A DNA stretch of 64,000 bases from Bacteroidota bacterium (GCA_029237775.1 JAQZBR010000006.1:194159-258158), one strand, 5' to 3'; shown: positions 1,970 through 33,261, numbered from the stretch's first letter. Translations and numbers: made by a program. Notes: generated by a model from the sequence alone, not told the origin.

Positions 1970-4900
1970 ATGATCCTACTGTTACAACGTACATATAATA
2001 TTATCATTCGCCTCAGCTTCCTCCTCTTTACGGGCTATGTACTGCTTTGTAATAATGTGGCTTATTCCCAACCTACCTGGGTATGGGGAAAGGATGTCCA
2101 CACTGCAAGTGATGAATATGCAAATGCTGTTGCTATAGACCCAATAAGTGGAAATGCAGTTATCGCAGGCGTCTATAAAAGCAGTCTTTCCTCATTTTAC
2201 GGAAGTAATTTTACGGGTGCTACAATGGGTGCATTTGTAGCTAAATATGATCCTGAGGGAAATGTGATCTGGGGCTTTAAGGTTGGAGATAATCACGATA
2301 ATACATGCACTGGAATTGCCATAGATTCTTCAGGGAATATTTATGTTACCGGCTCTTTTTCACTCACCACCGATTTTAAAGGCACGCTTTCAACTTCCAC
2401 GAATCTGACGGCAACAGGAAGCAGCGATATTTTTCTGGCAAAATATAATTCTGCGGGCCAGCTTATCTGGGTTAGGAAGGCAGGAGGGTCCTCGGATGAT
2501 GCAGGGAATGCGGTGGCTGTCAATTCAAGCAAGGTTTTTATAACCGGGCACTTCAGTAATTCAGCGACTTTCGGCTCTTTTAGTTCTCATGTAAATAATT
2601 CTAATGATAATGTTTTTATTGCAGCGTACGATCTTTCCGGTAGCATCCAATGGATGATCGATGGCGCTTCAACTCAATCATCTTATGGAAGAAGTATTGC
2701 TGCAGACAATTCAGGTGTTTATATATGTGGTGAGTTTAAAGGTAGCCCACTCTCTATTTATAATCCGGCAGGCGCAATTGCCACTTCATTGACAAACCCT
2801 GTTACTTCAAAATCGGACGCTTATATATTAAGCGTTTCAACAAGCGGTTATTTTTATTGGAGTGGAAGCATAAGCAGTACTGAAGACGATAAAGCAAACG
2901 GGGTAAATTTAAATGGAAACAAATTATTTCTTACCGGTTCAATAAGGCAGAATGCTACTTTCCCGTTTTACGCTTCCAATCCTGTGACCTCTGGTGGAAA
3001 TACAGACCTTTATATTGCTTCCTTCTCAAAAAGCACGGGCGCTACCCAGTGGGTAAAAAGCGGCAGCAGCAGCGATCAGGGCGTTGGTAATGCAATCACG
3101 AGTGACGTGTTCGGAAATGTTTATGTGGCAGGTTACTTTAAGGCATCAATTGCTTTCAGCGGAGGGGCGACCATAAATAATGGCGGTGGAAACGTAGAAG
3201 ACATTTTTGTGGTGTCATATTCGTCAACGGGTAGCTATAGATGGTACCAAGAGGCGGGCTCGAACGGAAAAGATATGCCATACGGAATCGACTGTAATTC
3301 GCTGAATGAAGTATATGTTGCAGGTGAATACAAAAAAGATCCAATCTTCGGACCTACTCAATTGTTCGATGATAGTGGTAACAACGCTTTTCTGGCGAAG
3401 ATCGCATGTCCTGCTATTTTAAATAATATTGCAAACTCATCTCAAACCATTTGTCAAGGTTCTTTTGCAGCAACCATAAATGGAACTACACCAACCGGAG
3501 GGACAGCGCCTTTCACTTATTCCTGGGAACAGAGCACAGATGGGTTAAACTGGGTAACTGCGGGCGGCACAAGCAACCTTCAGAACTATTCACCCGGGGC
3601 AATAACATCAACTACATTTTACCGGAGAAGGGTTTATTCTGCAACCTCGTGTTACAATACATCTGTAAGCAACATTATTACTATAAATGTCGATCAGATG
3701 CCTACAACAGCCTCTGCCGGGCAAAATCAGCAAGTGTGCTCCTCTGCAATTCCGTTAACGCTGAATGGAAATACACCCGTAGTTGGAACGGGCATGTGGA
3801 CTGTTGTTTCAGGTTCGGCATCCTTCGCTAACGTTAATTCTCCATCATCTCTGGTTACAGCTATGGGTACAGGGCCGAATGTCCTGAAGTGGACCATTTC
3901 CAATGGTTCCTGTCCTTCTTCATCATCAACTGTGTCCATTACAGTTAATGCACTTCCGGTTGCAAATGCCGGGCCTGATCAAAACATTTGTATCACTTCA
4001 AACTCGGTAGTTTTAAATGCGGGCAGTCCTGTCAATGGAAATATTTCCTGGTCAACAGTTTCAGGTACGGGAAGTTTTTCTTCCACCACAGCCTCCAGCG
4101 TTACAGTAAGTAATCTGGCAATTGGTCCAAATATCTTTAAGCTTAATATTTCAAACGGTGTGTGTCCTGTATCGAGCGACATGGTTACTGTGGTTGTTTC
4201 TGCATTACCTACTGTGGCTTCTACCGGTGCTGATATGGTTATCTGCGCTTCGACTCCTCAGGTTACACTTACCGGTAATCTCCCTTTGATAGGAACAGGA
4301 AGCTGGTCTGTATATAATGGCTCCGGGATTTTTTCGGGTTCATCTTCTCCATCATCCTCTGTGAGTGGATACTCATTGGGCGTGAACACTTATTTGTGGA
4401 CAATTGCAAATGGAGTATGCCCTTCTTCAACGGCAAATATCAACATTGTTGTGGATGCCATGCCAACAGCTGCGGATGCAGGAACAGATAAGAGGGTGTG
4501 CATTTCTTCGCCATCAGTCATAATGAATGCAACCATTCCTTCGGTTGGTACGGGAACATGGTCACTGGTCACTGGGACTGGTATCCCGGATTCTGTTTCC
4601 GATGCTCACACTGCAATAAGCTCTTTAGGTTCCGGAGAAAATGTTTTTCAATGGAGTGTTTCAAATGGTGTTTGTCCTACTTCTTCTTCAACCGTTACTA
4701 TTACTACGGATACTCAGCCCGACACTGCATCGGCAGGAGCTGATATAGAAACGGATGTTCCCTATGTTCAATTACAAGCTAACGTTCCGCAAATTGGTAC
4801 AGGCAGGTGGATCTGGCTTAGTGGAATCGGTACAATGAATGATGCTTCCGACCCATCGACTGTTATTTCGTCTTTCCCGGTGGGGGAAAATGTTCTCAGA

Positions 4901-5227
4901 TGGGAAATAACCAACGGTGTTTGTCCAGCCAGTAGTGATGACGTTCACATTAAAATGAATCCTTTAAGAGTACCGAACGGCTTTTCACCCAATGGGGATG
5001 GATATAATGATACCTATGCAATCGAAGCGCTTGAATATTATCCCGGAGTGAGATTCAAGGCGTTCAACAAGTGGGGAAATATTGTATACAATAGTGATGA
5101 ATATCACAATGAATGGGATGGTACGAATTTAAAAAATGAAAAGTTGCCGGACGATACCTACTATTTTACTTTGGAGGTTTTGCCGGGGATGGAGTATAGC
5201 GGCTTTGTAATAATTAAAAGTAAATAG
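1970..5227 (+). CDS. T9SS type-B cargo: SBBP beta-propeller repeats, then ~6 Ig/PKD-like repeats, then a gliding-motility-associated C-terminal domain (type B CTD)
   Basis: Signal peptide. N-terminal repeats of the form GNxxAxDxxGNxYVTGxFxxTxDFG...KYDxxGNxxW (SBBP). ~80-aa repeats with a conserved Cys pair (VCSSAIPLTLNGNTP...WTISNGSCPSS). C-terminus PNGFSPNGDGYNDTYAIE...WGNIVYNS...WDG carries the hallmark 'FSPNGDGxND' of the type B sorting domain. Confidence 0.8.
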   Translation: MILLLQRTYNIIIRLSFLLFTGYVLLCNNVAYSQPTWVWGKDVHTASDEYANAVAIDPISGNAVIAGVYKSSLSSFYGSNFTGATMGAFVAKYDPEGNVIWGFKVGDNHDNTCTGIAIDSSGNIYVTGSFSLTTDFKGTLSTSTNLTATGSSDIFLAKYNSAGQLIWVRKAGGSSDDAGNAVAVNSSKVFITGHFSNSATFGSFSSHVNNSNDNVFIAAYDLSGSIQWMIDGASTQSSYGRSIAADNSGVYICGEFKGSPLSIYNPAGAIATSLTNPVTSKSDAYILSVSTSGYFYWSGSISSTEDDKANGVNLNGNKLFLTGSIRQNATFPFYASNPVTSGGNTDLYIASFSKSTGATQWVKSGSSSDQGVGNAITSDVFGNVYVAGYFKASIAFSGGATINNGGGNVEDIFVVSYSSTGSYRWYQEAGSNGKDMPYGIDCNSLNEVYVAGEYKKDPIFGPTQLFDDSGNNAFLAKIACPAILNNIANSSQTICQGSFAATINGTTPTGGTAPFTYSWEQSTDGLNWVTAGGTSNLQNYSPGAITSTTFYRRRVYSATSCYNTSVSNIITINVDQMPTTASAGQNQQVCSSAIPLTLNGNTPVVGTGMWTVVSGSASFANVNSPSSLVTAMGTGPNVLKWTISNGSCPSSSSTVSITVNALPVANAGPDQNICITSNSVVLNAGSPVNGNISWSTVSGTGSFSSTTASSVTVSNLAIGPNIFKLNISNGVCPVSSDMVTVVVSALPTVASTGADMVICASTPQVTLTGNLPLIGTGSWSVYNGSGIFSGSSSPSSSVSGYSLGVNTYLWTIANGVCPSSTANINIVVDAMPTAADAGTDKRVCISSPSVIMNATIPSVGTGTWSLVTGTGIPDSVSDAHTAISSLGSGENVFQWSVSNGVCPTSSSTVTITTDTQPDTASAGADIETDVPYVQLQANVPQIGTGRWIWLSGIGTMNDASDPSTVISSFPVGENVLRWEITNGVCPASSDDVHIKMNPLRVPNGFSPNGDGYNDTYAIEALEYYPGVRFKAFNKWGNIVYNSDEYHNEWDGTNLKNEKLPDDTYYFTLEVLPGMEYSGFVIIKSK

Positions 5228-5229
5228 AT

Positions 5230-6114
5230 TTGAAAAAACTACTATTCATATTTCTGCTAATGAGTCACTGGTGTTATGCACAACATAATGTGTTGTATAG
5301 CCAGTATTATTTTTCGGGAATCTTGATTAATCCTGCTTATGCAGGAAGTCAGAATGCTTTAAATTTCACTAGCATCTACCGGGATCAGTGGACGGGTATA
5401 GATGGGGCACCTAGAAATCTAAGCATAGGCCTACATACACCCCTTAAGAATGAAAAAGTGAATGCAGGCCTCGTTTTTCTGAATAACCGTTATGGTATTA
5501 CATGCGAAACAAGAGCGATGGGAGTGTATGCATACAAACTAAAGTTAGGTAAAGGAAGTTTAGCTTTTGGCTTACAGGGTGGTGTGGAATACTTTAAGAA
5601 TGATATCAGCAAAATTATATCAACAGATAATGGTGATCCTGTTTTTGAACAGGCCGTTGAAAAAAGCATAAGTGGAGTTGTCGGTGCAGGATTATTTTAT
5701 AAGTCAGAAAAAGTGATAGCCGGGATCTCTGCTCCGATTTTATACAGCACAAGAAAAAACTATGTGGTTGCTTATAGTCCGCTTATTCTTTCTGCAGGAT
5801 TTCTTGTTAACCTTAATGACGACCTTGTTCTTAAGCCGGCTGGTCTCGTCAGACATATTAAAAACTCCCCTGTTGGTTGGGATTTAACAAGTGCGATCTA
5901 TTATCGTGAGGCTATAGGGGTCGGATTAGGGTACAGGAGCAACGATGCGGCATACGGATATCTTGATATCCGTCTTAATGATCAATTCAGCATAGGCTAT
6001 TGTTATGATTACACCTTAAGCCATCTGAACACTTATTCAAATGGAAGCCATGAATTTATGCTTAGATATATTTTCAGCTATAAATTAAATACCAAGAGTC
6101 CGAGATATTTTTAG
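5230..6114 (+). CDS. PorP/SprF-family T9SS outer-membrane protein (predicted partner of the upstream type-B CTD cargo)
   Basis: Signal peptide followed by QYYFSGILINPAYAGSQNALNFTSIYRDQW, the family-defining N-terminal motif. Beta-barrel-like with a C-terminal aromatic (..HEFMLRYIFSYK). Likely TTG start 2 bp after the upstream stop. Confidence 0.75.
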   Translation: MKKLLFIFLLMSHWCYAQHNVLYSQYYFSGILINPAYAGSQNALNFTSIYRDQWTGIDGAPRNLSIGLHTPLKNEKVNAGLVFLNNRYGITCETRAMGVYAYKLKLGKGSLAFGLQGGVEYFKNDISKIISTDNGDPVFEQAVEKSISGVVGAGLFYKSEKVIAGISAPILYSTRKNYVVAYSPLILSAGFLVNLNDDLVLKPAGLVRHIKNSPVGWDLTSAIYYREAIGVGLGYRSNDAAYGYLDIRLNDQFSIGYCYDYTLSHLNTYSNGSHEFMLRYIFSYKLNTKSPRYF

Positions 6115-6116: not shown

Positions 6117-7679
6117 ATGAAGAAACTGATTCTATATATATTATTATTCGCACCTGTGCTTGATGTTTGTTCGCAGGCTGATGAAATTTTATATAAAGAA
6201 TTTAAAAACGTCTTTGATGTTACTCCGCTGAACATAAACAGTCAGGTAAGTGAGATGTCACCTTTTATGGCCGGAAAGAACCTTTATTTTGCCCGGAACA
6301 GGAAACCTCAACCTGCTTTAAACTATAATAACCCGGAATCTTCAGAACCGATGTATGATATATATACTGCTTCACGCATCGATTCAATCAATTTTTCAAC
6401 ACCTGCAGTCTCTCATAAATTCAGTTCGCTTTTTAATGATGGTCCTTTAAGCTTTACTGAAGATGAAACGGAAGCATTGATCACCTGCAATGAGAAAAGT
6501 TATGATTTTATTCTTCGTTCTCATGAAAAAGCCAAACAATTAAAAATTTACTATTCCTCTAATCTAAATGGAAAATGGTCTGTTCCTCAAATTCATCCCG
6601 TTTGTTCTGAAGAAGGGTCGTTCTGCCATGCGGTTTACTGTAATAACAAAAATGCAATGGTATTTGCTTCAGATATGCCGGGCGGATATGGCGGGATGGA
6701 TTTATACATCACGGAACTTAAAAATGGTGAATGGCAAAAACCCCGCAATCTCGGTAAGAAAATTAATTCAACCGCTAACGAAATTTTTCCGTTTATAAAT
6801 AAAACTGGCAATCTGTATTTTTCATCTGACAGGAAAAATGGTATGGGGGGACTTGATATTTATTCCATTATTCTTAAGGATACTTCAAGCACCAGTGCCT
6901 TATTGCTTGAAAGTCCTGTGAACAGTAAAGCAGACGATTTCGGGATCTGGACGAATGATGATGGCAGCTCAGGCTATTTATCATCTGACCGGCTAGCAAG
7001 TAAGGATGATAACATCTTTTACTTTTATAAGATAATTCCTGCTTTTAAAAATAAAGTGATTTCTAAAAGTAAATTCTGCTATACTTTTTTCGAAGAATCA
7101 TCACTATCTCAGGCCGATACTGCAGGCTTAACATATGAATGGGATTTTGGAAATGGAATTAAGAAAAGAGGTCTGGAGGTGAAACAATGTTTTGACAAAC
7201 CCGGAACATATCCGGTTAGCCTTAATGTAATTGATAAGTCTTCAGGACAACTGTTTTATAATGATCTGAACTATGATTTTGTTGTAGAGCAACCCCGGCA
7301 GATTTACATTGCCAGTGTAGACACTGTGGAAATCGGGAATCCGATAGAGTTGGATGGCTCGTCTTCAGTAATTGACGGTTACACGATTAAAAAATATTAC
7401 TGGACGTTCAATGATGGATGGTTTAGCCTTGGCAGCAAAGCGAGGCATGAATATTTTACTACAGGCTATCATACTGTGATACTTGGGGTGGTGGCGGAAT
7501 CAGACAGCACCTGCAAAGAAGATACATTTTATACAGTAAGAAAGATTTATGTTAAAGGCCTTGTAAAAGAAACGGGCTACAACAACGGAAAAAATAACTG
7601 GATTGAACCAAGCTTCGAATCTGATGCACAGCATGAGATTATTTTAGACAGTCAGAATAGTTCAGATACCGGAAAATAA
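6117..7679 (+). CDS. Secreted protein with PD40 (WD40-like/TolB-type) beta-propeller repeats and PKD domains
   Basis: Repeats of the form MPGGYGGMDLYITE.../FSSDRKNGMGGLDIY (PD40 signature), PKD-like YEWDFGNG and a second PKD-like block. No OmpA domain. Confidence 0.6.
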   Translation: MKKLILYILLFAPVLDVCSQADEILYKEFKNVFDVTPLNINSQVSEMSPFMAGKNLYFARNRKPQPALNYNNPESSEPMYDIYTASRIDSINFSTPAVSHKFSSLFNDGPLSFTEDETEALITCNEKSYDFILRSHEKAKQLKIYYSSNLNGKWSVPQIHPVCSEEGSFCHAVYCNNKNAMVFASDMPGGYGGMDLYITELKNGEWQKPRNLGKKINSTANEIFPFINKTGNLYFSSDRKNGMGGLDIYSIILKDTSSTSALLLESPVNSKADDFGIWTNDDGSSGYLSSDRLASKDDNIFYFYKIIPAFKNKVISKSKFCYTFFEESSLSQADTAGLTYEWDFGNGIKKRGLEVKQCFDKPGTYPVSLNVIDKSSGQLFYNDLNYDFVVEQPRQIYIASVDTVEIGNPIELDGSSSVIDGYTIKKYYWTFNDGWFSLGSKARHEYFTTGYHTVILGVVAESDSTCKEDTFYTVRKIYVKGLVKETGYNNGKNNWIEPSFESDAQHEIILDSQNSSDTGK

Positions 7680-7694: not shown

Positions 7695-8669
7695 ATGAAG
7701 CAAATGTACAGGAGATTTATCGTATCGATCATGCTCATACTGAATGTATATTTCGGTTGTGCACAGCAGGCGCCTTCAATGGAAGAAAATATTCCGTTCT
7801 TATGCACTTTTAGTAAAAATGCAGACAAAAGCTGGGGAGATGACGATAATGTTCAGATCATTTTTTTCGTAATGCCGGTAACAGAAAAAAATCCTGTTTA
7901 TATTAAAATCTTTGATCCTAATAACGGTGGAAAATACGATGAAGCTCACGGCCCGTTTAACAGTAAAACACGTTTTTCTGTTTTTGGAGGTGCAGGAGCG
8001 CACTCATCCGATGATGCTAAAAAACATGATCCGGTTGGGAACTATAAAAGCGGTGTGCAACTGGCCAGCAAAATTTTTGGTGAAGAAGCTGAATACGAAG
8101 ATAAATGGATCACTCTCGGTCCTTTCAATCCTGTGGAAGGTGAGCTGCAACCGGATGCAGGCGGATATGTTTTTAAAGTTGTAGTTGAAGGGACCGATGG
8201 AGATGATGGAAATCTATACAGACTTTTTATGTCTTCAAGTAAAACCGAAAATAAGCCGATTGAAGGTGGCAATATGTTTACTTACGAATATTCTTTCCGT
8301 TTATCAGATCAGAAAAACTCAGTGTCTCATTTATATCCTTTTATAACCTCCAATCTGGTTGCGGTAAAAGTAAATGTTTTTGATTTTGATAATGATGGGT
8401 TGATCAGATTAGTCTCTGTTGCTAAAAGAGGTGATATTGCCAAAACTTCCGGTGATGCTGAATGGACAGTAAACACGCATGAAGTGGTTCAACAGGAGTT
8501 CAACACGTCCTTTGATATTCAATTTATAAAGCAAAAGGATGCAAAGAATAACAATATTGTTGTTTTTATCACCAATCAGTACAATCAGCTAATGCCTTTT
8601 TATACCAGTCCGATCGGAGGGATTCCCAAGTATAAATATAAAATAGGTGTTAAGGTGGTGAATAATTAA
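7695..8669 (+). CDS. Hypothetical secreted protein or lipoprotein
   Basis: Signal peptide (..LNVYFGCAQQ) and no recognisable domain. Tightly packed in the same-strand gene string. Confidence 0.45.
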   Translation: MKQMYRRFIVSIMLILNVYFGCAQQAPSMEENIPFLCTFSKNADKSWGDDDNVQIIFFVMPVTEKNPVYIKIFDPNNGGKYDEAHGPFNSKTRFSVFGGAGAHSSDDAKKHDPVGNYKSGVQLASKIFGEEAEYEDKWITLGPFNPVEGELQPDAGGYVFKVVVEGTDGDDGNLYRLFMSSSKTENKPIEGGNMFTYEYSFRLSDQKNSVSHLYPFITSNLVAVKVNVFDFDNDGLIRLVSVAKRGDIAKTSGDAEWTVNTHEVVQQEFNTSFDIQFIKQKDAKNNNIVVFITNQYNQLMPFYTSPIGGIPKYKYKIGVKVVNN

Positions 8670-8680: not shown

Positions 8681-11600
8681 ATGCGTTTAAAAAATACTAT
8701 TATCATTGTTTTCTTTAATCTTCTTGCTTCAGCGGCCTGGTCTCAGATATATAACTTCAGAGTGTTCGGTGTGGATGAAGGACTTCCGCAATCCTATGTT
8801 TACTCAATTTCTCAGACTAAGACAGGTTTTATAAATGTTGCTACAGGTGAAGGGTTTTGTTCTTTTGAAGGCAGCAAGTTTAAAGTATTTAATACGAAAG
8901 ATCATCTTGCTGAGAATTTTGTCACTACACATTTCACAGATTCAAAAAATATTACCTGGCTTGGCCATTACCAGAAGGGGATAAGTTTCCTCCGGAACGA
9001 AAAATTTTCTTCTGTCAGGCAAACTCTGGATATAGCGTCCAAAGTGACGTGTATAGCAGAAGATCAAAAACATCATATCTGGTTCAGCACGCAAAGCAAA
9101 GGCTTATACAGACTAGATTCGCTTTTACATGTGGATGCTATTGATTCAAAGAATGAAGAAGGTTCTAATGCTATATGCTTTGATCATTCGGGGGCGTTGC
9201 TTGAAGGCTCTGACAGGGGCTTGTTTATATATACTCTGAGCAAGACCGGCAAGGTCCTTACTTTGAAGCAGGAGATAAAAGAATTGTCAGGCAAAAATGT
9301 TAAATGTATTGTGCCTGTTAATACCAGAAAAGGAGCCTTCTGGCTGGCTGTTGATGACTACGGAATTGTAGGAATTGAGAAAAATAATGGTAAGTATGAA
9401 GTTTTCGTAACCATAAAAAATGAGCTAAATCTGAAAGATTGCACATTTTCCTCGTTGTTTGTCGACCAGAAAGAGAACCTTTGGATAGGCGATTTCGGAG
9501 AGGGTATCCGTAAAATTTCTTTTTACGACAAAGCCAATAAAACAGCTTATTATGTTAACAAGATAGATGACCGGAATGGCCTTCCTAATGAATATATTCA
9601 ATCAATTTATGAAGATTATGAGGGCAATATGTGGTTTGGAAGTTTCGGTTCGGGCCTAGTTGAGCTGCCATTAGAAAAATTTGCTTTTTTTGAAGGTAAG
9701 AATGGTCTGAATTATAAAAATGCAACATGTATTTTTATTGACAGGGATGGCGGATTCTGGGTAGGTAATGATAAAGGTTTGTTTCAGTATAACATTGAAG
9801 CACCTGAATTAAGCCGACAGTTTGATGCAAAGGATGGTTTTGTAAGTTCTGAAGTAACAGCTATTGCGCAGGACAGATCAGGTTTGCTTTGGATAGGTAC
9901 AAAGGAAAATGGAGTTTATACTTTTGATAAAACGAAAAATTCTTTTCAGAATTTTTCCAAGCGTAAATCTTTGAATACTCCTAACATCAACTCTTTGATC
10001 GCAACTCTCGATAATAAAATAGTAATTGCTACTTCTGAAGGTGTTTATTTTTACGAGCAGGAAAGTGAGAGTCTAAAGCATTTGACCACACTTGACGGGC
10101 TTCTGCATAACAATGTGACCAAGGTTTTTGAAGATAATAAAAAGAGGTTGTGGTTTTGTTCCAATGGCGCGGGACCCTATTTTTTAAAGGATAATGAATT
10201 CAATGTTTTTAATAATATTCCTGAGCTTCGCTCATTCAGCATAACGTCTATCACCCAATCGGCCGATGGTAATGTGTGGATTGGCACGGAAGGAGATGGA
10301 GTATTCAGTTATAATGAAAGAGGTGGCTTTGTGAATTTTAAAGTAACAGAAGGATTACTATCCAACTATTGCTATTTTATCATTTCTGACAAGAATGGAA
10401 ATCTTTGGGCAGGCCATAAAAATGGGCTCAGTTATAAACCCGCACAATTGAAAACTTTCCGTTCATATGGGAAATCTGATGGTTTACTATTTACGGACTT
10501 TAATAAAAATTCCTGTTTCAGGGATGTCTCAGGGAACCTGTGGTTAGGTACAAGTAATGGTTTGGTAAAGTATAATGCTGAAGGCGAGAACAGGATCCAG
10601 GCCGAACCCAAAACAAATATTGCCGGTTTGATGTTAAATAATACCTTCTATCATCCGGAAGAAAGCATTGAGGTGCCGTATGATGATTATTCAGTGAAGG
10701 TTGATTATATAGCGATCTCTTTTACCGATCCCGCAAAAGTCAATTTCAAATATCGGTTGATCGGCCAGGATACGATCTGGAGATATACCAATTCCAAATT
10801 CATTGAGTTCCCGAAGCTCAACGATGGGGAATACACATTTCAGCTACTTGCAGCAAACAGTGATAACGTATGGAATTCAAAGCCTGCGCAGATAAGCTTT
10901 GTGGTTAAACCACCATACTGGAAACGTGTATGGTTCTATTCCATGGTTTTTCTTTTTATAGGTTCATTATCGTATTCAGTTACAAGGTATCGTACGCGGT
11001 CACTGGTGGAAGCTAAATTACTTCTGGAACAAAAGGTTAACGAAAAGACTGCTTTACTTCAGGAGGAGAAAGCAACTGTTGAAAAAATAAAATTCGAACT
11101 GGAGGTAAAGAATAAGAATGTTACAGACAGTATCAATTACGCTCAGAGAATCCAGGAATCGATCCTTCCTTCCAAATATTCCATATCCCAGGCCTTTAAT
11201 CAGTCCTTCATTTACTATAAGCCACGTGATATTGTGAGCGGGGATTTTTATTGGTTTGCGGAAACGGAGGATGATTACCTGATCGCTGCTGTAGACTGCA
11301 CGGGACATGGTGTTCCGGGTGCATTTATGTCTCTGGTCGGATCCACATTATTAAATGAGCTGGTGAGCAATAAAAAAATCACAAGGCCTTCCGCGATTCT
11401 AACGAAGCTGAATAGTTCGATCATTCGCGTATTGAGGCAAAAGTCAGATTATAACTCATCTCACGATGGAATGGATATGGCTGTTTGTGCCATCAGCAAG
11501 GATAAGAAGAGATTGCGTTTCAGTGGAGCATTGCGTCCTCTGTTTCATGTCAGGAATAAAAAGCTTACTGAACTGAAAGGGAATCCATTCTTTATCGGAG

Positions 11601-18708: not shown

Positions 18709-18752
18709 TTATATTATCTAATCCCACTAATTTGAAGTTATACATTAAATAT

Positions 18753-19307: not shown

Positions 19308-19328
19308 ATAAAAGTAAAAGCGTATAAA

Positions 19329-21353: not shown

Positions 21354-21771
21354 AGTTAAGATCTTCCTTGTGGACGATGATGCAGTATTATTAAAATCCC
21401 TTGAGATCGACTTTCTTCAACATGACGATTATGAGATTAAAACTTTTGCCACTGGCGAGCTGTGTATGGAGAATATTTCAAGTAAGCCTGATCTGATTAT
21501 TCTTGATTATCACCTGAACGGAATCAACTTCGATGCTATGAATGGGATCAATACCTTGGACAAAATTAAAGAGTATGACCATAATATTCCTGTTGTTATG
21601 CTTTCGTCCCAGGATGACATTAACGTTGCGGTGAACTGTATGCATCATAAAGCATTTGACTACGTTGTAAAAAGTGAAACAGCCTTTCTCAGGTTGCAAA
21701 AAATAATTGCTGACATTCTTCAGATGAAGGATATGAAAAAACAATTAAACTGGTATATGGAAAGAGCGTAA
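21337..21771 (+). CDS. Single-domain response regulator (receiver only)
   Basis: KIFLVDDDAVLLKSL...LIILDYHL receiver motifs. It overlaps the kinase stop by 17 nt, consistent with translational coupling. Confidence 0.8.
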   Translation: MKTETKVKIFLVDDDAVLLKSLEIDFLQHDDYEIKTFATGELCMENISSKPDLIILDYHLNGINFDAMNGINTLDKIKEYDHNIPVVMLSSQDDINVAVNCMHHKAFDYVVKSETAFLRLQKIIADILQMKDMKKQLNWYMERA

Positions 21772-24963: not shown

Positions 24964-26571
24964 ATGAAATATAAATTACTTACAAAATTATCTGCTGCAA
25001 TGCTGCTTACAGTACCGGCTGTTAGCTTTGGTCAATCAATAAATCTGGGAACTGCAGCTAACTTCGCTTTGTTTTCTACGAATGGAGCAGTTGGAAATTC
25101 CGGGATTACACATGTTACTGGAAACGTTGGAACTAACAGCGGCTCAAGTACCGGATTCGGTAACGTAAATGGCCAGATGCACGATCAGGATCTTGTTAGC
25201 GCACAAGCTGCAGCAGACCTTTTGATCGCATACAATCAATTGAACAGTGCAACACCTACCTTTTTCCTTGCACCTTTGTTAGGAAACGGTGATACTTTAA
25301 CTCCGGGAGTTTACTCAGTATCCGGAGCAACTGTATTAAATTTAAATTTGTTTTTGAACGCGCAGGGTAATCCTAATGCTGTCTTTGTTTTTCAGATACA
25401 GGGTTCATTGTCTGCTAATGCCAATACCAAGATCAAACTGATCAACAATGCCAAAGCATGTAATGTGTACTGGAAGGTTGAAGGTCTTGTAAGTATAGCT
25501 GCTGCAACTACTATGAAAGGTACCATTATTGCAAATAATGCTGCTATTGAGATGAACACGAATGATTCACTTGAAGGAAGAGCCCTTTCTACAGCTGGAG
25601 CTGTTACCGTTGATGGAGTTCTTGTTTACACCCCAATTGGTTGTGGTAGCCCGACTTTAACCGGTCCTGCGGCTCCTGATCTTGCTTCTGTAGAATGTTA
25701 CGCAATATTCTCTTCTGACGGTGCAGTTACGAATTCAGGTGTTTCTTATGCAACAGGTGATATCGGAACAAATGTGGGATTAACGACAGGATTCAATTCA
25801 TTGAATGTATCAGGTAATGTTCACCCGATCCCTGATGGTTCTACTGCAGCTGCTGCATCCGATCTGTTAAATGTTTATACTTATCTGAATACATTACCTA
25901 CGGACATTGAGCTTTTATACCCTGCTCAGTTTGGTGCTGACCTTGTTCTTACTCCACATACATATCTTTTGAATGCTGCAACAGTATTTACTGATACATT
26001 ATATCTGGATGCTCAGGGAAACACAAATGCAATGTTCGTGATTAAGATCAACGGTGCACTTTCAACAAGTACATATGCAAATGTTAAGCTGATCAATGGT
26101 GCACAAGCAAATAACGTTTACTGGAAGGTTGACGGAGCTATTGAAATAAATGATTACTCCAAAATGGCTGGTACGTTCATCGCAAACAATGGTGCTGTTA
26201 ATGTTACTACAGGTGTAAATGTAAGAGGCCGTGTTTTATCTACTACAGGAACTGTTACAACAGAAGCAATTACTGCCAATGTTCAGACGATCTGTACACC
26301 AACAGGAATCAATGTTGTTGAAAAAACGGAACAGGTTATCAATGTATATCCAAATCCTTTCACAACATCTTTAACGATTAAGTTGGATGATAAATTCAAT
26401 ACATGTGAATTGCAGATCTTTAATGTGCTTGGAGCTGTTGTGTTTTCGAAAACACTTACAACCCAGAGCACAACTGTTTCAACAAACGATTTACCTGCAG
26501 GAGTCTATTTCTACAAGGTGATCACAAAATCTAACGTTATTCAATCAGGTAAGATTATCTCTCAGAATTAA
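24964..26571 (+). CDS. Tandem two-domain DUF3494 ice-binding-like protein with a T9SS type-A C-terminal sorting domain
   Basis: Signal peptide and two DUF3494 domains (LGTAANFALFSTNGAVGNSGITHVTGNVGTN... and CYAIFSSDGAVTNSGVSYATGDIGTN...), each with NAQGNxNAxFV..I and NVYWKV motifs. C-terminal VYPNPFTTSLTIKLDD...AGVYFYKVITKSNVIQSGKIISQN is a type A CTD. Confidence 0.75.
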   Translation: MKYKLLTKLSAAMLLTVPAVSFGQSINLGTAANFALFSTNGAVGNSGITHVTGNVGTNSGSSTGFGNVNGQMHDQDLVSAQAAADLLIAYNQLNSATPTFFLAPLLGNGDTLTPGVYSVSGATVLNLNLFLNAQGNPNAVFVFQIQGSLSANANTKIKLINNAKACNVYWKVEGLVSIAAATTMKGTIIANNAAIEMNTNDSLEGRALSTAGAVTVDGVLVYTPIGCGSPTLTGPAAPDLASVECYAIFSSDGAVTNSGVSYATGDIGTNVGLTTGFNSLNVSGNVHPIPDGSTAAAASDLLNVYTYLNTLPTDIELLYPAQFGADLVLTPHTYLLNAATVFTDTLYLDAQGNTNAMFVIKINGALSTSTYANVKLINGAQANNVYWKVDGAIEINDYSKMAGTFIANNGAVNVTTGVNVRGRVLSTTGTVTTEAITANVQTICTPTGINVVEKTEQVINVYPNPFTTSLTIKLDDKFNTCELQIFNVLGAVVFSKTLTTQSTTVSTNDLPAGVYFYKVITKSNVIQSGKIISQN

Positions 26572-26742: not shown

Positions 26743-29700
26743 ATGAAACGTAAAGCTCTCTTATTACTCACGGCCGCTATACTGCTCCTTCCGAAAATAA
26801 ACTTGGCTCAGGCTCCTGTTCTTGGAACAGCCGCTGATTTTGTGCTGTTTACTTCTGTTGGTGCATTAAGTAACACCGGCATATCGCAACTTACAGGAAA
26901 TGTAGGTTCCAACAGCGGTTCCAGTACCGGATTCGGAAACGTGAATGGTGTAATGCATAATAATAACGGTACTACTGCTGCTGCTGCTGCCGATCTTAAT
27001 CTGGGCTATAATCAGCTTAACAGTGCTATACCTACATTTTTTCCAGCCCCTTTGCTTGGTAACGGACAAACATTGAATGCAGGAGTTTATTCCATTTCAG
27101 GAGCATCAACGCTTAATCTTGATCTAACACTTGATGGACAGGGAAATCCTAATGCGATTTTCATTTTCCAGATTCAAGGACCTTTCTCTGCAAATGCCAA
27201 TGCAAAAGTAAAGTTGATAAATGACGCACAGGCCTGTAATGTGTTCTGGAAAGTAGAAGGACTTGTTAGTCTTGCTTCTGCCGTAACCATGAGAGGAACC
27301 ATTGTAGCAAACAATGCTGCAATTAATATGAGTACGAATGACACTCTTGAAGGCAGAGCCCTTTCAACTGCCGGGGCTATCACGATTGACGGAACTCTTG
27401 CTTATAAACCTATCGGTTGTGGAAGCGCTGTTTTAACAGGTCCATTAGCACCAACGCTGGGAGCTACAGCCTGTTACACTTTATTCACATCGATAGGTCC
27501 TGTTACTAATGCCGGTGTAACCAATGTTACCGGTGATATCGGAAGTGATAACGGAACAACTACGGGTTTTAATCCTTTGCTGGTGGTTGGTATGATTCAT
27601 GGAACTCCAGATGGTTCAACGGCTTTAGCTGCTTCTGACCTTATCAGCGTATATAATTATCTTAACGGGCTCCCTTACGATATTGAATTATTGTATCCCG
27701 CCCAATTCGGTAACAATCTGGTACTGACTCCACATACTTACCGGATGAATTCAGCTGCAACATTTACTGATACTTTGTATCTGAACGGAGAAGGAAATCC
27801 TAATGCTGTTTTTGTTATTCAAATCAACGGTGCACTTGCTACCAGTACCTATTCAAAAGTTAAACTGATCAATGGTACACAGGCGAAGAATGTTTTCTGG
27901 AAAGTAGAAGGTGCTGTAAGTATTAATGATTACTCTGTTTTCAGAGGAACCATCGTAGCTAATAATGGAGCTATAAGTATGACCACAGGGGTGTATCTTG
28001 ATGGAAGAGCATTAACAACAACAGGTGCAGTAAATACTGCAGCTATCACTGCTATTATGCCTCCGGGCTGCGGTGCTACTGCGACTTCTCCTGTTATTTC
28101 CCTTCAACCGAATGATCAGCTCGTATGTGCAGGTGATTCTGCCGGGTTTTCTGTAACAGCTGTCGGAACAGGCCTTTCATATCAATGGAGAAGAGGAACT
28201 GTTAATCTTGTGAACGGAGGAAATATTTCCGGAGCAACTTCTGCGGTGTTATCAATTAATCCGGTGTCGGCTGCCGATACAGCCTATAATTATAATGTAA
28301 TTGTGAGCGGAATGAGCTCACCTAATGATACTTCGGATAATGTTTCTCTTGGCATCACAAATGCTATTGCAATAACCTCGGAGCCTATGGGACAGACACT
28401 ATGCCCCGGAGACTCTGCATTTTTTACTGTTATGGCTCCTGGTTCAGGATTAACATATCAGTGGAGAAAAGGAAATGTTGACCTTATTAACGGAGGTAAT
28501 ATTTCGGGCGCAACTTCTGCCACTTTAACAATAGACCCTTCGTCAATAGCTGATACAGCTTTTAATTATAATGTAATTGTAACAGGGTCATGCGGAAGTG
28601 ATACATCAGTGTATGCTTTTTTAATGATCACCAATGGTGTAAGTATTACCTCTGAGCCAATGAATCAGATAAGCTGTCTTGGCAGCTCTGTAAGTTTTGC
28701 GACTGTTGCAAGCGGTTCAGGACTTACTTACCAGTGGAGAAAAGGGACAGTTAACATGGTCAATGCCGGAAATATTTCCGGTGTGAATACAGCAATGTTA
28801 TCTGTTAATCCTGTTACCGGTTCTGATGCGGCACTTAATTATAATGTTATCATTAACGGTTCATGCGTAAGTGATACATCAGTTAATGTTTCGTTAACGG
28901 TTGACAGTATCCGTATCACTACAGAGCCTTCAAATGAGTTTGTATGTATTGGAACACCTGCAAGCTTTTCAGCTGTTGCTGCAGGTTCCGGAATGTCATA
29001 CCAATGGAGAAAAGGTGCGGTTAATATGGTTAACGGAGGTAACATCTCCGGTGTGAACACGTCAGTTTTAACTATTAACCCTTCAACTATCTCTGATATT
29101 GCAACTAATTATAATCTTATAGTCACAGGAACTTGTGGGAATGATACTTCATTGAATGTTTCATTGAACATCGACAGTACACGTATAGTATCTGTGTCGC
29201 CAAATCAGTCTGTCTGTCTTGGAAACTCAATCGCTTTCTCTGTAAATGCACTCGGTTCAGGGCTTACTTACCAATGGAGGAAGGGTGCGGTTAATCTGGT
29301 TAACGGAGGTAATATCTCAGGTGCTACCACTTCGGTGTTAACTATTAACCCTGCAACAATCCTTGATAATGCAACCAATTACAATGTTATTGTTAGCGGT
29401 TCTTGTGGTAATGATACATCAGCAAATGTTACTCTTAATGTAGTAACGGCTCCTACAGCAACTGCCGGAAGTAATTCTCCGGTATGTACAGGAAGTGCTA
29501 TCAACCTTACCGCTGTAACTGTTTCAGGTGCCAATTACTCATGGTCGGGGCCGGCAGGATATTCATCTTCAACACAAAATCCTGTTATTCTTTCTGCATC
29601 ATTTTCTGATGCCGGCAACTATTCACTTACAGTGTCACAAGGTGGCTGTACTTCATTTCCTTCTGTAGTAGCAGTTGTTGTTAATAATTGTAATTCTGAT

Positions 29701-30330
29701 CTGAGTGTAATCAAATCGGTTAATACAGCAACGCCTTTCTTTGGAACACAAGTGACCTTTGTGATCACCGCAACCAATAATGGCAGTGGAACTGCAACAG
29801 GCGTAGTCGTAAATGATGTTCTTCAAAACGGGTATGTTTATGTTTCCTCTTCAGTAACTGCAGGTTCTTATGATGTACTGACAGGTGAATGGGTTGTCGG
29901 TAATATGATCGATAATTCAACTGAAACATTGACCATGACAGCAACTGTAGTTGAAGGTGGTAATTATGTTAACACGGCAATTATTTATGGAAATGAATCA
30001 GATCCTGATATGACAAATAATAATTCATCGGTGGAAACATTCCCAACCGATTTCTTTATCCCTGAAGGATTTTCTCCTAATGGTGATGGCATCAACGATC
30101 TTTTTGTGATCCGCGGGATCCGTAATTATCCGGAAAACACATTTGTGATCTTCAACCGTTGGGGTGATAAAGTTTTTGAGGCTAATCCATATACAAGTGA
30201 ATGGGATGGTAAATGTGGGAAGGGCTTAAGGCTCGGAGGTGAGCAGCTGCCTATCGGAACATATTTCTATATCCTTGACCTGGGTAATGATACTGACATC
30301 ATTAAAGGAACTATCTATCTGAACAAATAA
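26743..30330 (+). CDS. Large T9SS type-B cargo: two DUF3494 ice-binding-like domains, ~6 Ig-like repeats, DUF11, gliding-motility-associated C-terminal domain
   Basis: The N-terminal ~430 aa are ~70% identical to the 535-aa neighbour. Six ~95-aa repeats (..GSGLTYQWRKG(A/T)VN(L/M)VNGGNISG..NYNVI..GSCG.DTS). DUF11-like NSDLSVIKSVNTATPFFGTQVTFVITATNNGSGTATGVVVNDVL. C-terminus FFIPEGFSPNGDGINDLFVIRGI...WDG is a type B CTD. Start taken at MKRKALLLL (26743); the ORF-track start is 26725. Confidence 0.75.
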   Translation: MKRKALLLLTAAILLLPKINLAQAPVLGTAADFVLFTSVGALSNTGISQLTGNVGSNSGSSTGFGNVNGVMHNNNGTTAAAAADLNLGYNQLNSAIPTFFPAPLLGNGQTLNAGVYSISGASTLNLDLTLDGQGNPNAIFIFQIQGPFSANANAKVKLINDAQACNVFWKVEGLVSLASAVTMRGTIVANNAAINMSTNDTLEGRALSTAGAITIDGTLAYKPIGCGSAVLTGPLAPTLGATACYTLFTSIGPVTNAGVTNVTGDIGSDNGTTTGFNPLLVVGMIHGTPDGSTALAASDLISVYNYLNGLPYDIELLYPAQFGNNLVLTPHTYRMNSAATFTDTLYLNGEGNPNAVFVIQINGALATSTYSKVKLINGTQAKNVFWKVEGAVSINDYSVFRGTIVANNGAISMTTGVYLDGRALTTTGAVNTAAITAIMPPGCGATATSPVISLQPNDQLVCAGDSAGFSVTAVGTGLSYQWRRGTVNLVNGGNISGATSAVLSINPVSAADTAYNYNVIVSGMSSPNDTSDNVSLGITNAIAITSEPMGQTLCPGDSAFFTVMAPGSGLTYQWRKGNVDLINGGNISGATSATLTIDPSSIADTAFNYNVIVTGSCGSDTSVYAFLMITNGVSITSEPMNQISCLGSSVSFATVASGSGLTYQWRKGTVNMVNAGNISGVNTAMLSVNPVTGSDAALNYNVIINGSCVSDTSVNVSLTVDSIRITTEPSNEFVCIGTPASFSAVAAGSGMSYQWRKGAVNMVNGGNISGVNTSVLTINPSTISDIATNYNLIVTGTCGNDTSLNVSLNIDSTRIVSVSPNQSVCLGNSIAFSVNALGSGLTYQWRKGAVNLVNGGNISGATTSVLTINPATILDNATNYNVIVSGSCGNDTSANVTLNVVTAPTATAGSNSPVCTGSAINLTAVTVSGANYSWSGPAGYSSSTQNPVILSASFSDAGNYSLTVSQGGCTSFPSVVAVVVNNCNSDLSVIKSVNTATPFFGTQVTFVITATNNGSGTATGVVVNDVLQNGYVYVSSSVTAGSYDVLTGEWVVGNMIDNSTETLTMTATVVEGGNYVNTAIIYGNESDPDMTNNNSSVETFPTDFFIPEGFSPNGDGINDLFVIRGIRNYPENTFVIFNRWGDKVFEANPYTSEWDGKCGKGLRLGGEQLPIGTYFYILDLGNDTDIIKGTIYLNK

Positions 30331-30363
30331 CATCGATCTAATAACACAATTAAAATAAAGAAA

Positions 30364-31305
30364 ATGAAAACATTTAAAACAATAGGCATCGTGTTGATTT
30401 CGGCACTTGGCGGTATAACAGCCAATGCACAGCAAGCCCCGATGTACACTCATTACATGTATAACACACTTTCTGTAAACCCCGCATACGCAGGGAGCAG
30501 AGAAGCTCTGACTGTCACTGCCCTCCACCGTTCGCAGTGGGTTGATTTCAAAGGAGCTCCTGTTACACAAACCCTGACTCTTCATGCTCCTTTAAGAAAT
30601 GAGCATATTGGTGTCGGGCTGTCATTATCAAATGATAAAATTGGCCCCAATCACAATATTTCGGCTTTTGCAAACTTTGCGTACATAATGAAAGTTTCCG
30701 CAAAATCGAAGCTTGCCCTGGGATTGAGTGCTGGTGCCAATATCTTTCAATCAAATGTAAATTCGATTCAGTTGGAGGGACAGGAAACTGATCCTGTTTT
30801 TCAGACGAATATCAATAACCATGTGACACCTAATTTTGGTTTGGGTGCCTATTATTACAGGGAGCGGTTTTATGCGGGGATATCTGCACCAAATCTTCTT
30901 CAGAATAATTATTCAGTGATAAAGGTGGACGGAAACACTTTAATTGGTAAAGAGCAAAGACACTTTTTCCTGATTGCCGGGACTGTGATCCCTATTTCAA
31001 GCGACCTGGCTTTTAAACCGACAACACTCGTTAAAGTTACATCCGGTGCACCGGTTCAGGCTGATCTTACAGCATCTTTCGTTATCATGAAAAAACTTCT
31101 GATAGGTGCGATGTACCGCTCAGGTGATGCTTTCGGTGGACTGGTTGGTGTGGATATTACCGAACAATTTCATGTAGGTTATTCATACGATTGGTCTTAC
31201 GGATTAAAAACAGCCAAGTACAACCAGGGAAGTCATGAAATTGTATTAAGATACGATTTCATCTATCCAAGCAAGAAACAGATCCATTCACCCAGATATT
31301 TTTAA
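30364..31305 (+). CDS. PorP/SprF-family T9SS outer-membrane protein
   Basis: Signal peptide then QQAPMYTHYMYNTLSVNPAYAGSREALTVTALHRSQW (family motif). C-terminal ..HEIVLRYDFIY. It is a paralogue of the 5230..6114 gene. Confidence 0.8.
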   Translation: MKTFKTIGIVLISALGGITANAQQAPMYTHYMYNTLSVNPAYAGSREALTVTALHRSQWVDFKGAPVTQTLTLHAPLRNEHIGVGLSLSNDKIGPNHNISAFANFAYIMKVSAKSKLALGLSAGANIFQSNVNSIQLEGQETDPVFQTNINNHVTPNFGLGAYYYRERFYAGISAPNLLQNNYSVIKVDGNTLIGKEQRHFFLIAGTVIPISSDLAFKPTTLVKVTSGAPVQADLTASFVIMKKLLIGAMYRSGDAFGGLVGVDITEQFHVGYSYDWSYGLKTAKYNQGSHEIVLRYDFIYPSKKQIHSPRYF

Positions 31306-31323
31306 TACCATATAAGAAACAAA

Positions 31324-33261
31324 ATGAAGAAATTATATATACCATTAGTATTATTAACAGCGCTCTCCCTGAGTCTTAGCGCTCAGGAGAAATCACGGAA
31401 AGAACGTGAAGGTGATAAATATGCCTTTCGCTACTCTTTCGATAAAGCAATCGAATCGTATACTCATGCCAAGAATCTTAGTCCGGATGGGCAAAGAAGG
31501 CTCGCGGAAAGTTACAGTAAGATGGATCAGAATAAAGAAGCTGAAATCGTCTATGCAAAACTGATCGGTTCAGGCATCGGCCTCATTGCTGAAGATTATT
31601 ATAATTATGCAATGGTAATGAAAGCCAATGCGAAATATGATGAGGCTAATAAAACAATGGATAAATTCAGCGAGCAAAAGCCGGATGATCTGCGCGCAAA
31701 GAGTTATGCTGGTTCTAAAGCATCCTTTGCTGATTTGCTGAAAGATAATGGCAGCTTTAAAGTTGAAACCTTAAAGGTGAATACCGCTGCACAGGATTTC
31801 GGAACTTCTTTCTATAAAGACCAAATTGTATTCGCTTCCACAAGGTCAGCTGCCAAGATGGTTAAACGATCATATAACTGGAACGGTATGCCTTTCCTTA
31901 ATATGTTCGTTGCAGATAAGGATGGTACCCAGTTAAAAGATCCTAAAAGATTCGATAACAGCCTTAACGGTAAAATGCATGATGGCCCTGGCAGCTTTAG
32001 CAGAGATGCAACCTTTATGGCATACACTAAAAATCATTTTAAAGACAAAAGCAAAGATAAAGTCGTAGAGCTTCAGATTTGTTTCAGCACTTTCAGAGAC
32101 GGAAAATGGTCAGAGGAAGAGCCTTTTAATTATAATAATAATGAATATTCTGTAGGTCAGCCATTTCTGACTGAAGATGGTAATACAATGTACTTTACAA
32201 GTGATATGCCGGGCGGGTACGGAGGCAGTGACCTTTACAAAACCTCAAGAATGCCGGGTAGTGCATGGAACAAACCTGAAAATCTTGGCAATAGTATTAA
32301 CACTGAAGGGGATGAAATGTTTCCATTTGTGGAATCTGAAAAAGGTGTACTGTACTTCTCTTCCAATGGTTTATCCGGATTGGGCGGAACAGATATTTTT
32401 ACAAGTGTGATCACTAATGGTGGATATGGCTTACCTAAAAATTCGGGTAGCCCATTGAATACACAATACGATGATTTTGCATGTATCGTTGACAGCAAAA
32501 CACATAAAGGGTATTTTTCATCGAACAGGTCAGGCGGTAGCGGTGCTGACGATATTTACGGTGTTGAAGTTTTGAAGGTTGCTGATATTCAGAAGAGGAT
32601 CGAAGGCTTTGCACGAGACAGGAACTTAAAGGTTCTGGGCGGTGTATCAATAACACTTCTTGATGAATCGAATAAAGTACTGGATACAATTACTACTAAC
32701 GCGGATGGCTCATTCAGCTTCAAAGTTGCTTCGAATACCAATTATTTACTTACCGGTAAGAAAAAGAAATTCAATGACGGAAATAATGTTGCAAATACCA
32801 ATGGCAATGAAGCGGTTGTCAAAGCTGATGTCATCCTGCTCACTAAAGCGGAAGCCATTGCCTCTGAAATAAAGGAGGGAAAAGATCTCGCTGAACTTCT
32901 TGCTTTGAATACAATTTTCTTTGATTATGGAAAATCTGATATCCGTAAGGATGCGGAGCCTGATCTCGATAAGATCATTGAGATTATGAATGCGTATCCT
33001 GAAATGATTGTGGAATTTCGTTCATACACAGATTGCAGATCAACAAAAGAGTTTAATCAGTTATTATCAGAACGGAGAGCCAAAGCGTCTTCTGAATATG
33101 TAAGACAAAAGATCTCTAATCCTTCCAGGATCCATGGTAAAGGATATGGAGAACCTAAGCTCGCAAGTTTATGCCCTTGTGAAGGGCCTGTGCTTTCTGA
33201 ATGTTTAGAAGGTGAACACCAGAAGAACCGGAAAACAGAATTTATTATCGTTAAAAAATAA
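31324..33261 (+). CDS. PorE-like OmpA-family protein (TPR + PD40 propeller + CRD-like + OmpA_C)
   Basis: PD40 repeats (FTSDMPGGYGGSDLYKT.., FSSNGLSGLGGTDIFTS..), a CRD-like block (IEGFARDRNLKVLGGVSITLLDESNKVLDT), and OmpA_C (IFFDYGKSDIRKDAEPDLDKI...RSYTDCRS...SERRAKA). Confidence 0.7.
   Translation: MKKLYIPLVLLTALSLSLSAQEKSRKEREGDKYAFRYSFDKAIESYTHAKNLSPDGQRRLAESYSKMDQNKEAEIVYAKLIGSGIGLIAEDYYNYAMVMKANAKYDEANKTMDKFSEQKPDDLRAKSYAGSKASFADLLKDNGSFKVETLKVNTAAQDFGTSFYKDQIVFASTRSAAKMVKRSYNWNGMPFLNMFVADKDGTQLKDPKRFDNSLNGKMHDGPGSFSRDATFMAYTKNHFKDKSKDKVVELQICFSTFRDGKWSEEEPFNYNNNEYSVGQPFLTEDGNTMYFTSDMPGGYGGSDLYKTSRMPGSAWNKPENLGNSINTEGDEMFPFVESEKGVLYFSSNGLSGLGGTDIFTSVITNGGYGLPKNSGSPLNTQYDDFACIVDSKTHKGYFSSNRSGGSGADDIYGVEVLKVADIQKRIEGFARDRNLKVLGGVSITLLDESNKVLDTITTNADGSFSFKVASNTNYLLTGKKKKFNDGNNVANTNGNEAVVKADVILLTKAEAIASEIKEGKDLAELLALNTIFFDYGKSDIRKDAEPDLDKIIEIMNAYPEMIVEFRSYTDCRSTKEFNQLLSERRAKASSEYVRQKISNPSRIHGKGYGEPKLASLCPCEGPVLSECLEGEHQKNRKTEFIIVKK

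Follow-up and report, generated by a model that had tools for sequence, protein, structure and literature searches.

Conserved type-B cargo modules with PorP/SprF-family and PD40-propeller genes in a Bacteroidota genome segment

Do type IX secretion system (T9SS) cargos whose C-terminal domain (CTD) is of type B possess, besides an outer-membrane protein of the PorP/SprF family, a dedicated periplasmic partner resembling PorE? The question is raised by a stretch of 64,000 nucleotides from a Bacteroidota bacterium (GCA_029237775.1, JAQZBR010000006.1:194159-258158), called here the window. An earlier note, made from the sequence alone, had described in it reiterated cassettes of type-B cargo, PorP/SprF and PD40 β-propeller genes, the latter with or without a peptidoglycan-binding OmpA_C domain. 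Open reading frames (ORFs) with the same coordinates were recovered in an ORF map of the window. The reading preferred here, held with moderate confidence, is that the window contains two distinct, anciently diverged and vertically conserved type-B cargo modules, together with one PorE-like gene that is not dedicated to a cargo. In both modules the cargo would be anchored through a cargo–PorP–propeller complex, connected in one of them (module B) to the cell wall and in the other (module A) to a periplasmic protein, U324, and a sensor phosphatase.

Two type-B cargo trios and their published counterparts

Domains were assigned by Pfam and NCBIfam profile scans of the window ORFs against curated cut-offs. 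Module A (1970-11872, plus strand) begins with the gene of an adhesin-like secreted cargo of 1085 residues (1970..5227), with SBBP propeller repeats and PKD/Ig domains, which ends in a type-B CTD at residues 1000-1083 (PF13585 CHU_C, 82.3 bits for a cut-off of 27; TIGR04131, 59.2 bits for a cut-off of 35). The PorP/SprF-family gene (5230..6114) starts with a TTG codon 2 bp past the cargo stop, and its product matches PF11751 at 199.7 bits and TIGR03519 at 219 bits (cut-off 90.55; model positions 1-292). Another 2 bp separate it from the third gene (6117..7679), which encodes a periplasmic protein with a PD40 β-propeller and two PKD domains (PKD_4 matches). The likeness of this protein to PorE is restricted to the propeller (PorE model positions 141-417, E 1.6e-45, 155.6 bits), and neither the profile scans nor an AlphaFold2 (AF2) model revealed in it a tetratricopeptide repeat (TPR), a carboxypeptidase-regulatory-like domain (CRD) or an OmpA_C domain. 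The module continues, after 15 and 11 bp, with the genes of U324 (7695..8669), a 324-residue periplasmic protein with two β-sandwich domains and Asp-rich motifs, and of a predicted inner-membrane sensor phosphatase (8681..11872) with Reg_prop, Y_Y_Y and SpoIIE/PP2C domains.

Module B (26743-33261, plus strand) is composed of three genes, separated by 33 and 18 bp. Its cargo (26743..30330) contains two DUF3494 domains (PF11999, 236 bits, cut-off 28.7), Ig domains and a DUF11 domain (106.7 bits), with a type-B CTD at its extreme C-terminus (CHU_C, 90.7 bits, cut-off 27; TIGR04131, 52.4 bits, cut-off 35); against the IBP_CFB equivalog model (NF045625) it scores 95 bits, for a cut-off of 400. The PorP/SprF-family protein (30364..31305) matches PF11751 at 275.4 bits and TIGR03519 at 274 bits (cut-off 90.55; model positions 3-292). 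The third gene (31324..33261) encodes a full-length PorE/CHU_0125-like periplasmic protein with PD40, CarboxypepD_reg and OmpA matches (OmpA 41.4 bits, cut-off 27.2). A further gene of this type (21944..23914), the orphan gene discussed in the last section, lies upstream of module B. All proteins of the two trios, both cargos included, and the 21944 protein have a signal peptide as read from their N-termini; those of the 31324 and 21944 proteins contain no Cys, and both OmpA-bearing proteins lack a lipobox, as the earlier note had stated.

That note was also right on the order and the short spacing of the two trios, on the presence of OmpA_C in the second but not the first, and on the PorP/SprF and OmpA_C assignments, which all stand above the curated cut-offs. 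For the 31324 protein it had listed the propeller, the CRD and OmpA_C, which are indeed there, without the N-terminal part. Alignment over the whole PorE and CHU_0125 models, from positions 10 and 1 respectively, indicates that the TPR-like region is present as well; the order TPR, β-propeller, CRD, OmpA_C is thus found in the 31324 and 21944 proteins and is absent from the 6117 protein. That the cassettes are reiterated does not point to a recent duplication, the paralogues being only 31-36% identical (36% for the PorP pair, 34% between the full PorE-like proteins and 31% between the 6117 and 31324 propellers).

A dedicated PorE-like third partner had been presented as undescribed, which does not hold. 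According to Gorasia 2022 (PMC9143113) and Paillat 2025 (PMC12618676), both citing Kulkarni 2019, Flavobacterium johnsoniae has five or six operons comprising a type-B substrate, an SprF-like protein and a PorE homolog; Paillat 2025 counts five, each with the substrate, its cognate SprF-like shuttle and the PorE homolog. Static cell-wall anchoring via PorP–PorE-like complexes was already proposed in both papers. The window trios are therefore new members of a known arrangement, with new cargo types. Module B matches the Fjoh_3952-3951-3950 operon fully, with the same gene order, the same families, a non-lipoprotein PorE homolog and a proposed static anchoring. The CTD of Fjoh_3952, encoded beside a PorE homolog, is static, whereas type-B cargos without a PorE-like neighbour are mobile (PMC12618676). 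The differences from the F. johnsoniae operons reside in the cargos (DUF3494/Ig/DUF11 and SBBP/PKD) and in the uncultured lineage; for module A they extend to the third protein, devoid of TPR, CRD and OmpA_C, and to the U324 and sensor genes, which do not appear in what those papers say of the operons. With the trio, the published pattern of F. johnsoniae reaches an uncultured lineage of Bacteroidia as well as cargos of the DUF3494 and SBBP/PKD adhesin types. The SprB–SprF pair is alike in that the type-B cargo gene is immediately followed by its cognate PorP/SprF gene, but SprB is a mobile cargo with no PorE-like neighbour, whereas both window cargos have a propeller-protein partner.

The closest biochemical reference is the PorE–PorP–PG1035 complex of Porphyromonas gingivalis (Gorasia 2022, PMC9143113), in which, as envisaged for the window, a type-B cargo is bound to PorP and PorP to a peptidoglycan-binding protein with TPR, propeller, CRD and OmpA_C. 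In PorE, the contact with PorP is probably made by the WD40 domain, and the peptidoglycan-binding residues D576 and N584 of the OmpA_C domain are essential for secretion (Tominaga 2025, PMC12773672). Unlike in the window, P. gingivalis has a single PorP and a single PorE, the genes are not grouped in one cassette, and PorE, a lipoprotein, is essential to the T9SS in general. Gliding bacteria possess several PorE homologs, mostly non-lipoproteins (PMC12773672). None of the window proteins reaches the cut-off of 600 of the PorE equivalog (NF052230), the scores being 290 bits for 31324, 300.8 for 21944 and 155.6 for 6117. The best full-length model for the first two is the CHU_0125 family (NF053607), an OmpA-like outer-membrane integrity protein, but with 365.5 and 327.2 bits they remain far under its cut-off of 620 and are relatives rather than members.

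For the PorE-like protein of module B, more than 100 full-length relatives were found, with identities of 54-71%. In 6/6 relatives looked up, a DUF3494/Ig(/DUF11)/type-B cargo gene is followed by the gene of a 312-313-residue PorP and then by the PorE-like gene. Median identities within the module B family are 77% for the CTD, 73% for PorP and 58% for the PorE-like protein, against 41, 33 and 32% with module A; this excess argues that the module B genes were inherited as a set, and fits cognate sets. Terminator-like hairpins flank the module, at 26598-26631 (after the 24964-26571 gene) and at 33279-33308. When aligned to 6TOP, the structure of the PorE C-terminal part, the OmpA_C domain of the 31324 protein keeps the D, N(+8) pair as well as the RRA motif. 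The equivalents of D576 and N584 lie within SYTDCRSTKEFNQLLSERRA in the 31324 protein and GFTDSKGSAEYNLKLSEERA in the 21944 protein, and the D and the N eight residues on are kept in both. Judged from these residues, the domain is consistent with a peptidoglycan tether, and module B fits the published static-anchor model in every feature examined. The cargo-specific peptidoglycan tethering suggested by the earlier note can be retained for this second cassette; it is not supported for the first, whose third protein has neither OmpA_C nor CRD nor TPR and belongs to a family with OmpA_C in 19 of 64 members. In one relative of module B (L104), another PD40+OmpA gene is found directly upstream of the cargo.

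The mechanism can be sketched as follows. Each cargo would be exported by Sec, then by the T9SS, after which the product of the neighbouring gene, the PorP/SprF-like outer-membrane protein, would take over its type-B CTD and retain the cargo at the cell surface. The product of the third gene, a periplasmic PD40-propeller protein, would dock on PorP from within the periplasm. In module B, its OmpA_C domain would bind peptidoglycan, giving a static, wall-anchored DUF3494/Ig adhesin, as proposed for Fjoh_3952/3951/3950. In module A, the propeller protein would have lost TPR, CRD and OmpA_C and carries PKD domains, and the complex would be coupled to U324 and the sensor phosphatase instead. The loss of OmpA_C and the continuation of the operon by the U324 and sensor genes suggest for the module A complex a probable link with a regulatory output instead of the wall. 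What the genes themselves show is their domain content, order and conservation and the predicted topology of their products. By homology with the work on P. gingivalis and F. johnsoniae, we infer every protein–protein contact, the surface anchoring and the peptidoglycan binding; retention of each type-B CTD by its cognate PorP would likewise follow from gene adjacency and from the published SprF–SprB and PorP–PG1035 interactions (PMC9143113).

Module A, a five-gene module with U324

The first cassette had been delimited two genes too short, since a five-gene module is conserved. In four contexts, the trio was followed by a protein of about 320 residues without Pfam domain and by a Reg_prop/Y_Y_Y/SpoIIE protein of about 1060 residues. 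A scan of one genome per species then provided 238 U324 loci, almost all in metagenome-assembled genomes of uncultured Bacteroidia, and the gene order was scored in 80 of them, the denominators below being the assessable loci. GCA_002319075.1, from a Sphingobacteriaceae bacterium, is one genome with the module. The sensor gene is directly 3' of U324 in 73/75 loci, and the propeller-PKD gene lies 5' of U324 in 66/68. PorP precedes the propeller-PKD gene in 55/58 loci, one of the misses (L031) reflecting a tandem duplication of the third gene, and PorP is itself preceded by a type-B cargo in 52/52. Over the 80 loci, the gaps from the cargo onwards have medians of -4, 1, 2 and 4 bp, and the five genes occur together in more than 50 genomes. 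With the order of cargo, PorP and PD40 genes kept in related genomes for both cassettes (6/6 for module B, 52-56 of 52-58 assessable relatives for module A) and with reading frames that overlap or nearly abut, the adjacency is not due to chance. The earlier note had named a lack of such synteny as grounds for refutation, and both cassettes withstand this check. This synteny across dozens of genomes brings comparative support for PorE-like paralogues dedicated to particular type-B cargos.

The third gene varies in layout. Among 64 examples, 27 encode proteins of less than 600 residues without OmpA_C, 19 proteins of 600-900 residues with OmpA_C, 16 proteins of at least 1000 residues without it, and 2 mid-size proteins without it; the presence of OmpA_C was taken from an iterated hidden Markov model (HMM), as two phmmer queries had overlooked some cases. 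Homologs of the 6117 protein come in an OmpA-less form of about 480 residues and an OmpA-bearing form of about 720. Since OmpA_C is found in 19/64 and the propeller is constant, peptidoglycan binding and wall tethering appear optional in module A, and what is conserved in the PorE-like partner is the propeller, not the peptidoglycan-binding domain. Such constancy is in line with a propeller that serves to bind PorP. For the 6117 protein, the AF2 model (pLDDT 81.5) comprises a propeller (residues 33-305), two PKD-like β-sandwiches (320-480) and a disordered tail. A Foldseek search with it returned only generic propeller and PKD folds (TolB-like, 1l0q), and no solved structure of the PorE N-terminal part was found for comparison. 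That the 6117 protein might be a lipoprotein through Cys18 was considered and rejected, this residue being unconserved among 29 homologs and the signal peptide ending in an A|Q-type SPI site.

The sensor protein matches Reg_prop (127.9 bits), Y_Y_Y (46.3 bits) and SpoIIE (PF07228, 68.8 bits for a cut-off of 25, residues 863-1062). It is predicted to start with a signal or transmembrane (TM) segment, to extend in the periplasm, with its Reg_prop propellers and Y_Y_Y domain, to about residue 749, and to carry, after a hydrophobic segment (750-768) and a coiled-coil-like stretch, its PP2C domain in the cytoplasm. Against the SiaA equivalog it reaches 189.6 bits, below the cut-off of 700. The module links a type-B cargo/PorP unit to a sensor phosphatase. 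No paper connecting SpoIIE with the T9SS, or PP2C with a type-B cargo/PorP context, was found in the open-access literature, and, judging from the accessible literature, this signalling-linked module plausibly represents a variant not described before.

U324 is by far the best conserved member, being 56-87% identical to 35 diverse homologs when the cargo, PorP and propeller proteins are only about 32-47% identical. Its 3227 homologs are all unnamed, and it has no Pfam or NCBIfam match and no significant relative in the PDB. The AF2 model (pLDDT 81.6, pTM 0.80) consists of two β-sandwich domains, without a close fold in the PDB. Two Asp-rich motifs are invariant, WGDDD and DFDNDG, the second of which resembles a DxDxDG calcium loop. 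The signal peptide is of the SPI type, with an A|Q-type cleavage site; for this reason, and given that Cys22 is unconserved in homologs, an assignment of U324 as a lipoprotein was discarded. In a library of 1.84 billion proteins, the U324 domain accounts for 665 cluster representatives at 50% identity. Among the fusion and family examples (P0381, P0382, P0394, P0406 and P0423 as well as P0372), its fusion partners are PKD arrays of 8-15 domains, TIG domains and, in P0372, a BlaR1/M56-type membrane transducer. These fusions to PKD arrays and to a membrane transducer fit a role of the U324 domain as an extracytoplasmic binding module that would work alongside PKD domains. The family merits its own definition, and this protein of about 320 residues, with thousands of unannotated homologs, offers a testable candidate link between T9SS surface anchoring and signalling.

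Several genes and loci around module A deserve mention. Directly upstream (395-1849) lies the gene of a 484-residue multi-pass membrane protein with a weak match to LMF1 (lipase maturation factor), which is kept in L002, L003, L006 and L007. Convergent to the end of the module, a minus-strand gene (11875-12447) encodes a 190-residue cytoplasmic protein that matches Peptidase_M48 weakly (E 0.003) and contains an HEISH (HExxH) motif; among the relatives, only the closest (L002, L003, L006-L008) have it at this place. A second PP2C/SpoIIE phosphatase is encoded 1.4 kb downstream (13285-15390), a predicted membrane protein whose sensor part is of the TPR type and whose TM segment spans residues 403-421, and extra PP2C genes occur near module A in only a few other loci (L025, L031, L058). 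Module A was also met on short contigs binned as non-Bacteroidota, namely L036, L043 (titled Akkermansia) and L067 (titled Saccharibacteria), which most likely reflects binning contamination rather than the real distribution.

Weighing the readings

Several observations weigh against the view of two anchoring modules with partners of the PorE type. The PorE-like window proteins reach about half of the PorE and CHU_0125 cut-offs and are not lipoproteins, and they are thus paralogues whose roles may differ. P. gingivalis PorE is needed for the secretion of many type-A cargos, beyond anchoring. In module A, PorP is 35% identical within its family and 33% identical to the module B PorP, so that sequence clustering alone shows no cognate pairing there. 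The module is also incomplete in places: L018 has the first four genes without the sensor, L082 only the propeller-PKD gene and U324, and L075 and L078 the U324 and sensor genes without any T9SS gene. These last two loci speak as well against a more ambitious idea, tentative and on balance doubtful, that module A is an undescribed trans-envelope signalling or feedback unit built on the T9SS type-B anchoring scaffold. The binding, load or secretion state of the adhesin, that is loaded or unloaded, ligand-bound, or present as a periplasmic pool of type-B CTD, would be conveyed by the propeller-PKD protein and U324 to the periplasmic propeller of the sensor and would switch its cytoplasmic PP2C domain, with a partner-switch or transcription response as output. 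The co-occurrence of the five genes with near-zero gaps fits such a device, although co-transcription may mean mere co-regulation. So does the conservation of U324, far above that of its neighbours, as expected for a protein with several fixed partners, together with the predicted topology of the sensor and the fusion of the U324 domain to a membrane transducer and long PKD arrays. A conceptual precedent exists in P. gingivalis, where PorA, a T9SS cargo, binds with its CTD to the sensor kinase PorY in the periplasm (PMC12152298), hence a cargo CTD acting there on an inner-membrane sensor; PorA, however, has a type-A CTD and its partner is a histidine kinase encoded elsewhere, whereas module A combines a type-B cargo and a PP2C phosphatase in the same cluster. 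No phosphatase substrate, either a STAS or an anti-sigma partner, was found next to module A. If the idea were true, U324 would define a new and very widespread extracytoplasmic binding domain.

The third genes might, rather improbably, encode factors for the secretion or assembly of their cargo instead of static anchors; they would lend PorP stability or connect it with the translocon or motor, and OmpA_C would merely position them. PorE and its peptidoglycan-binding residues are indeed essential for gingipain secretion in P. gingivalis (PMC12773672), and the dispensability of OmpA_C in the module A family, where the propeller is always kept, suggests that the core job is the propeller–PorP contact. 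The PorP–PG1035 complex nevertheless forms without PorE (PMC9143113), and the F. johnsoniae cargos, mobile without a PorE-like neighbour and static with one, point to localisation rather than export (PMC12618676). It is very improbable, finally, that the neighbourhoods have no functional meaning, the PD40/OmpA genes being simply abundant in Bacteroidota and lying near T9SS cargo genes by chance. The 21944-23914 gene and its relatives, which are without PorP and partly in tandem PorE-like arrays, and the plain OmpA gene (58731-59804) between two type-A cargo genes would be accounted for in this way; but order, orientation and near-zero spacing are kept across dozens of genomes at 31-58% protein identity, in loci from separate species representatives rather than near-identical strains. 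Two conserved anchoring modules thus remain the preferred reading.

The orphan PorE-like gene and the neighbouring features

The 21944..23914 gene (plus strand) encodes a non-lipoprotein with weak TPR, PD40, CarboxypepD_reg and OmpA matches (OmpA 74.2 bits, cut-off 27.2). It aligns end to end with the CHU_0125 and PorE models, which bears out the earlier description of a third PD40/OmpA_C paralogue with the PorE domain order. As an example of a cargo-dedicated partner, it had to be abandoned: no PorP-like ORF was detected within 7 kb of its orthologs, iterated HMM included, in about 10 loci with enough upstream sequence. Orthologs that never adjoin PorP (0 of ~10 assessable loci) give no support to the proposed rule, and the gene falls into a branch of the family that is independent of PorP. 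Among its relatives, the close ones (65-70% identity) follow a block of AraC-type regulator, hybrid histidine kinase and response regulator genes, as does the window gene (AraC-type regulator, PAS hybrid histidine kinase and response regulator, 18636..21771, plus strand, from Pfam matches). The complete block precedes the PorE-like gene in L093, L096 and L098, and the kinase and response regulator genes precede it in the short contig L092. In L096 and L098 the orthologs stand before a DUF3494 gene array; L087, which is related to the window and shares its response regulator and DUF3494 array, lacks the orphan gene. The genes of more distant relatives (45-51% identity) are arranged in tandem, with two to four PorE-like genes in a row. 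Such arrays of TPR/PD40/±OmpA paralogues, with neither PorP nor type-B cargo nearby, are seen in L094, L095, L097 and L099-L102, a context not discussed in the PorE papers cited here.

A hairpin precedes the orphan gene (21794-21813), and the next one (24812-24846) comes after the gene of a DUF3494 (ice-binding-like) lipoprotein (24037..24795, plus strand; PF11999 215.5 bits, lipobox FVSGC). With no hairpin between them, the two genes may form one transcription unit. Sigma-70 promoter scans gave counts equal to those of shuffled sequence, with a tool that does not cover Bacteroidota promoters. The lipoprotein gene is the first of three consecutive DUF3494 paralogues (24037-30330), each with a different surface-targeting signal: the FVSGC lipobox, the type-A T9SS CTD of the second (24964..26571, plus strand; TIGR04183 52.3 bits, residues 461-533) and the type-B CTD of the module B cargo. 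Strong terminator-like hairpins follow the first two (24812-24846 and 26598-26631). The three-gene array is also found in L087, L096 and L098, and histidine kinase and response regulator genes lie upstream of DUF3494 genes in L087 and L088.

A third cassette was considered on the minus strand, at 53.8-63 kb, and rejected. The two large genes of this segment (53816-62992) encode type-A CTD cargos, one with FG-GAP/LamG/Ig_7 domains and the other with SprB-repeat/SBBP domains; the gene between them (58731..59804, minus strand) encodes a plain OmpA-family protein of 357 residues, and PorP is absent. On the 3' side of module B, a block of small genes (33385-39539) comprises CsbD, YtxH, DUF5670, OMP_b-brl, DUF4421, holin-like and AI-2E transporter genes. 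This block is syntenic in L087 and L104-L106 and resembles a general-stress gene set beside DUF3494 genes.

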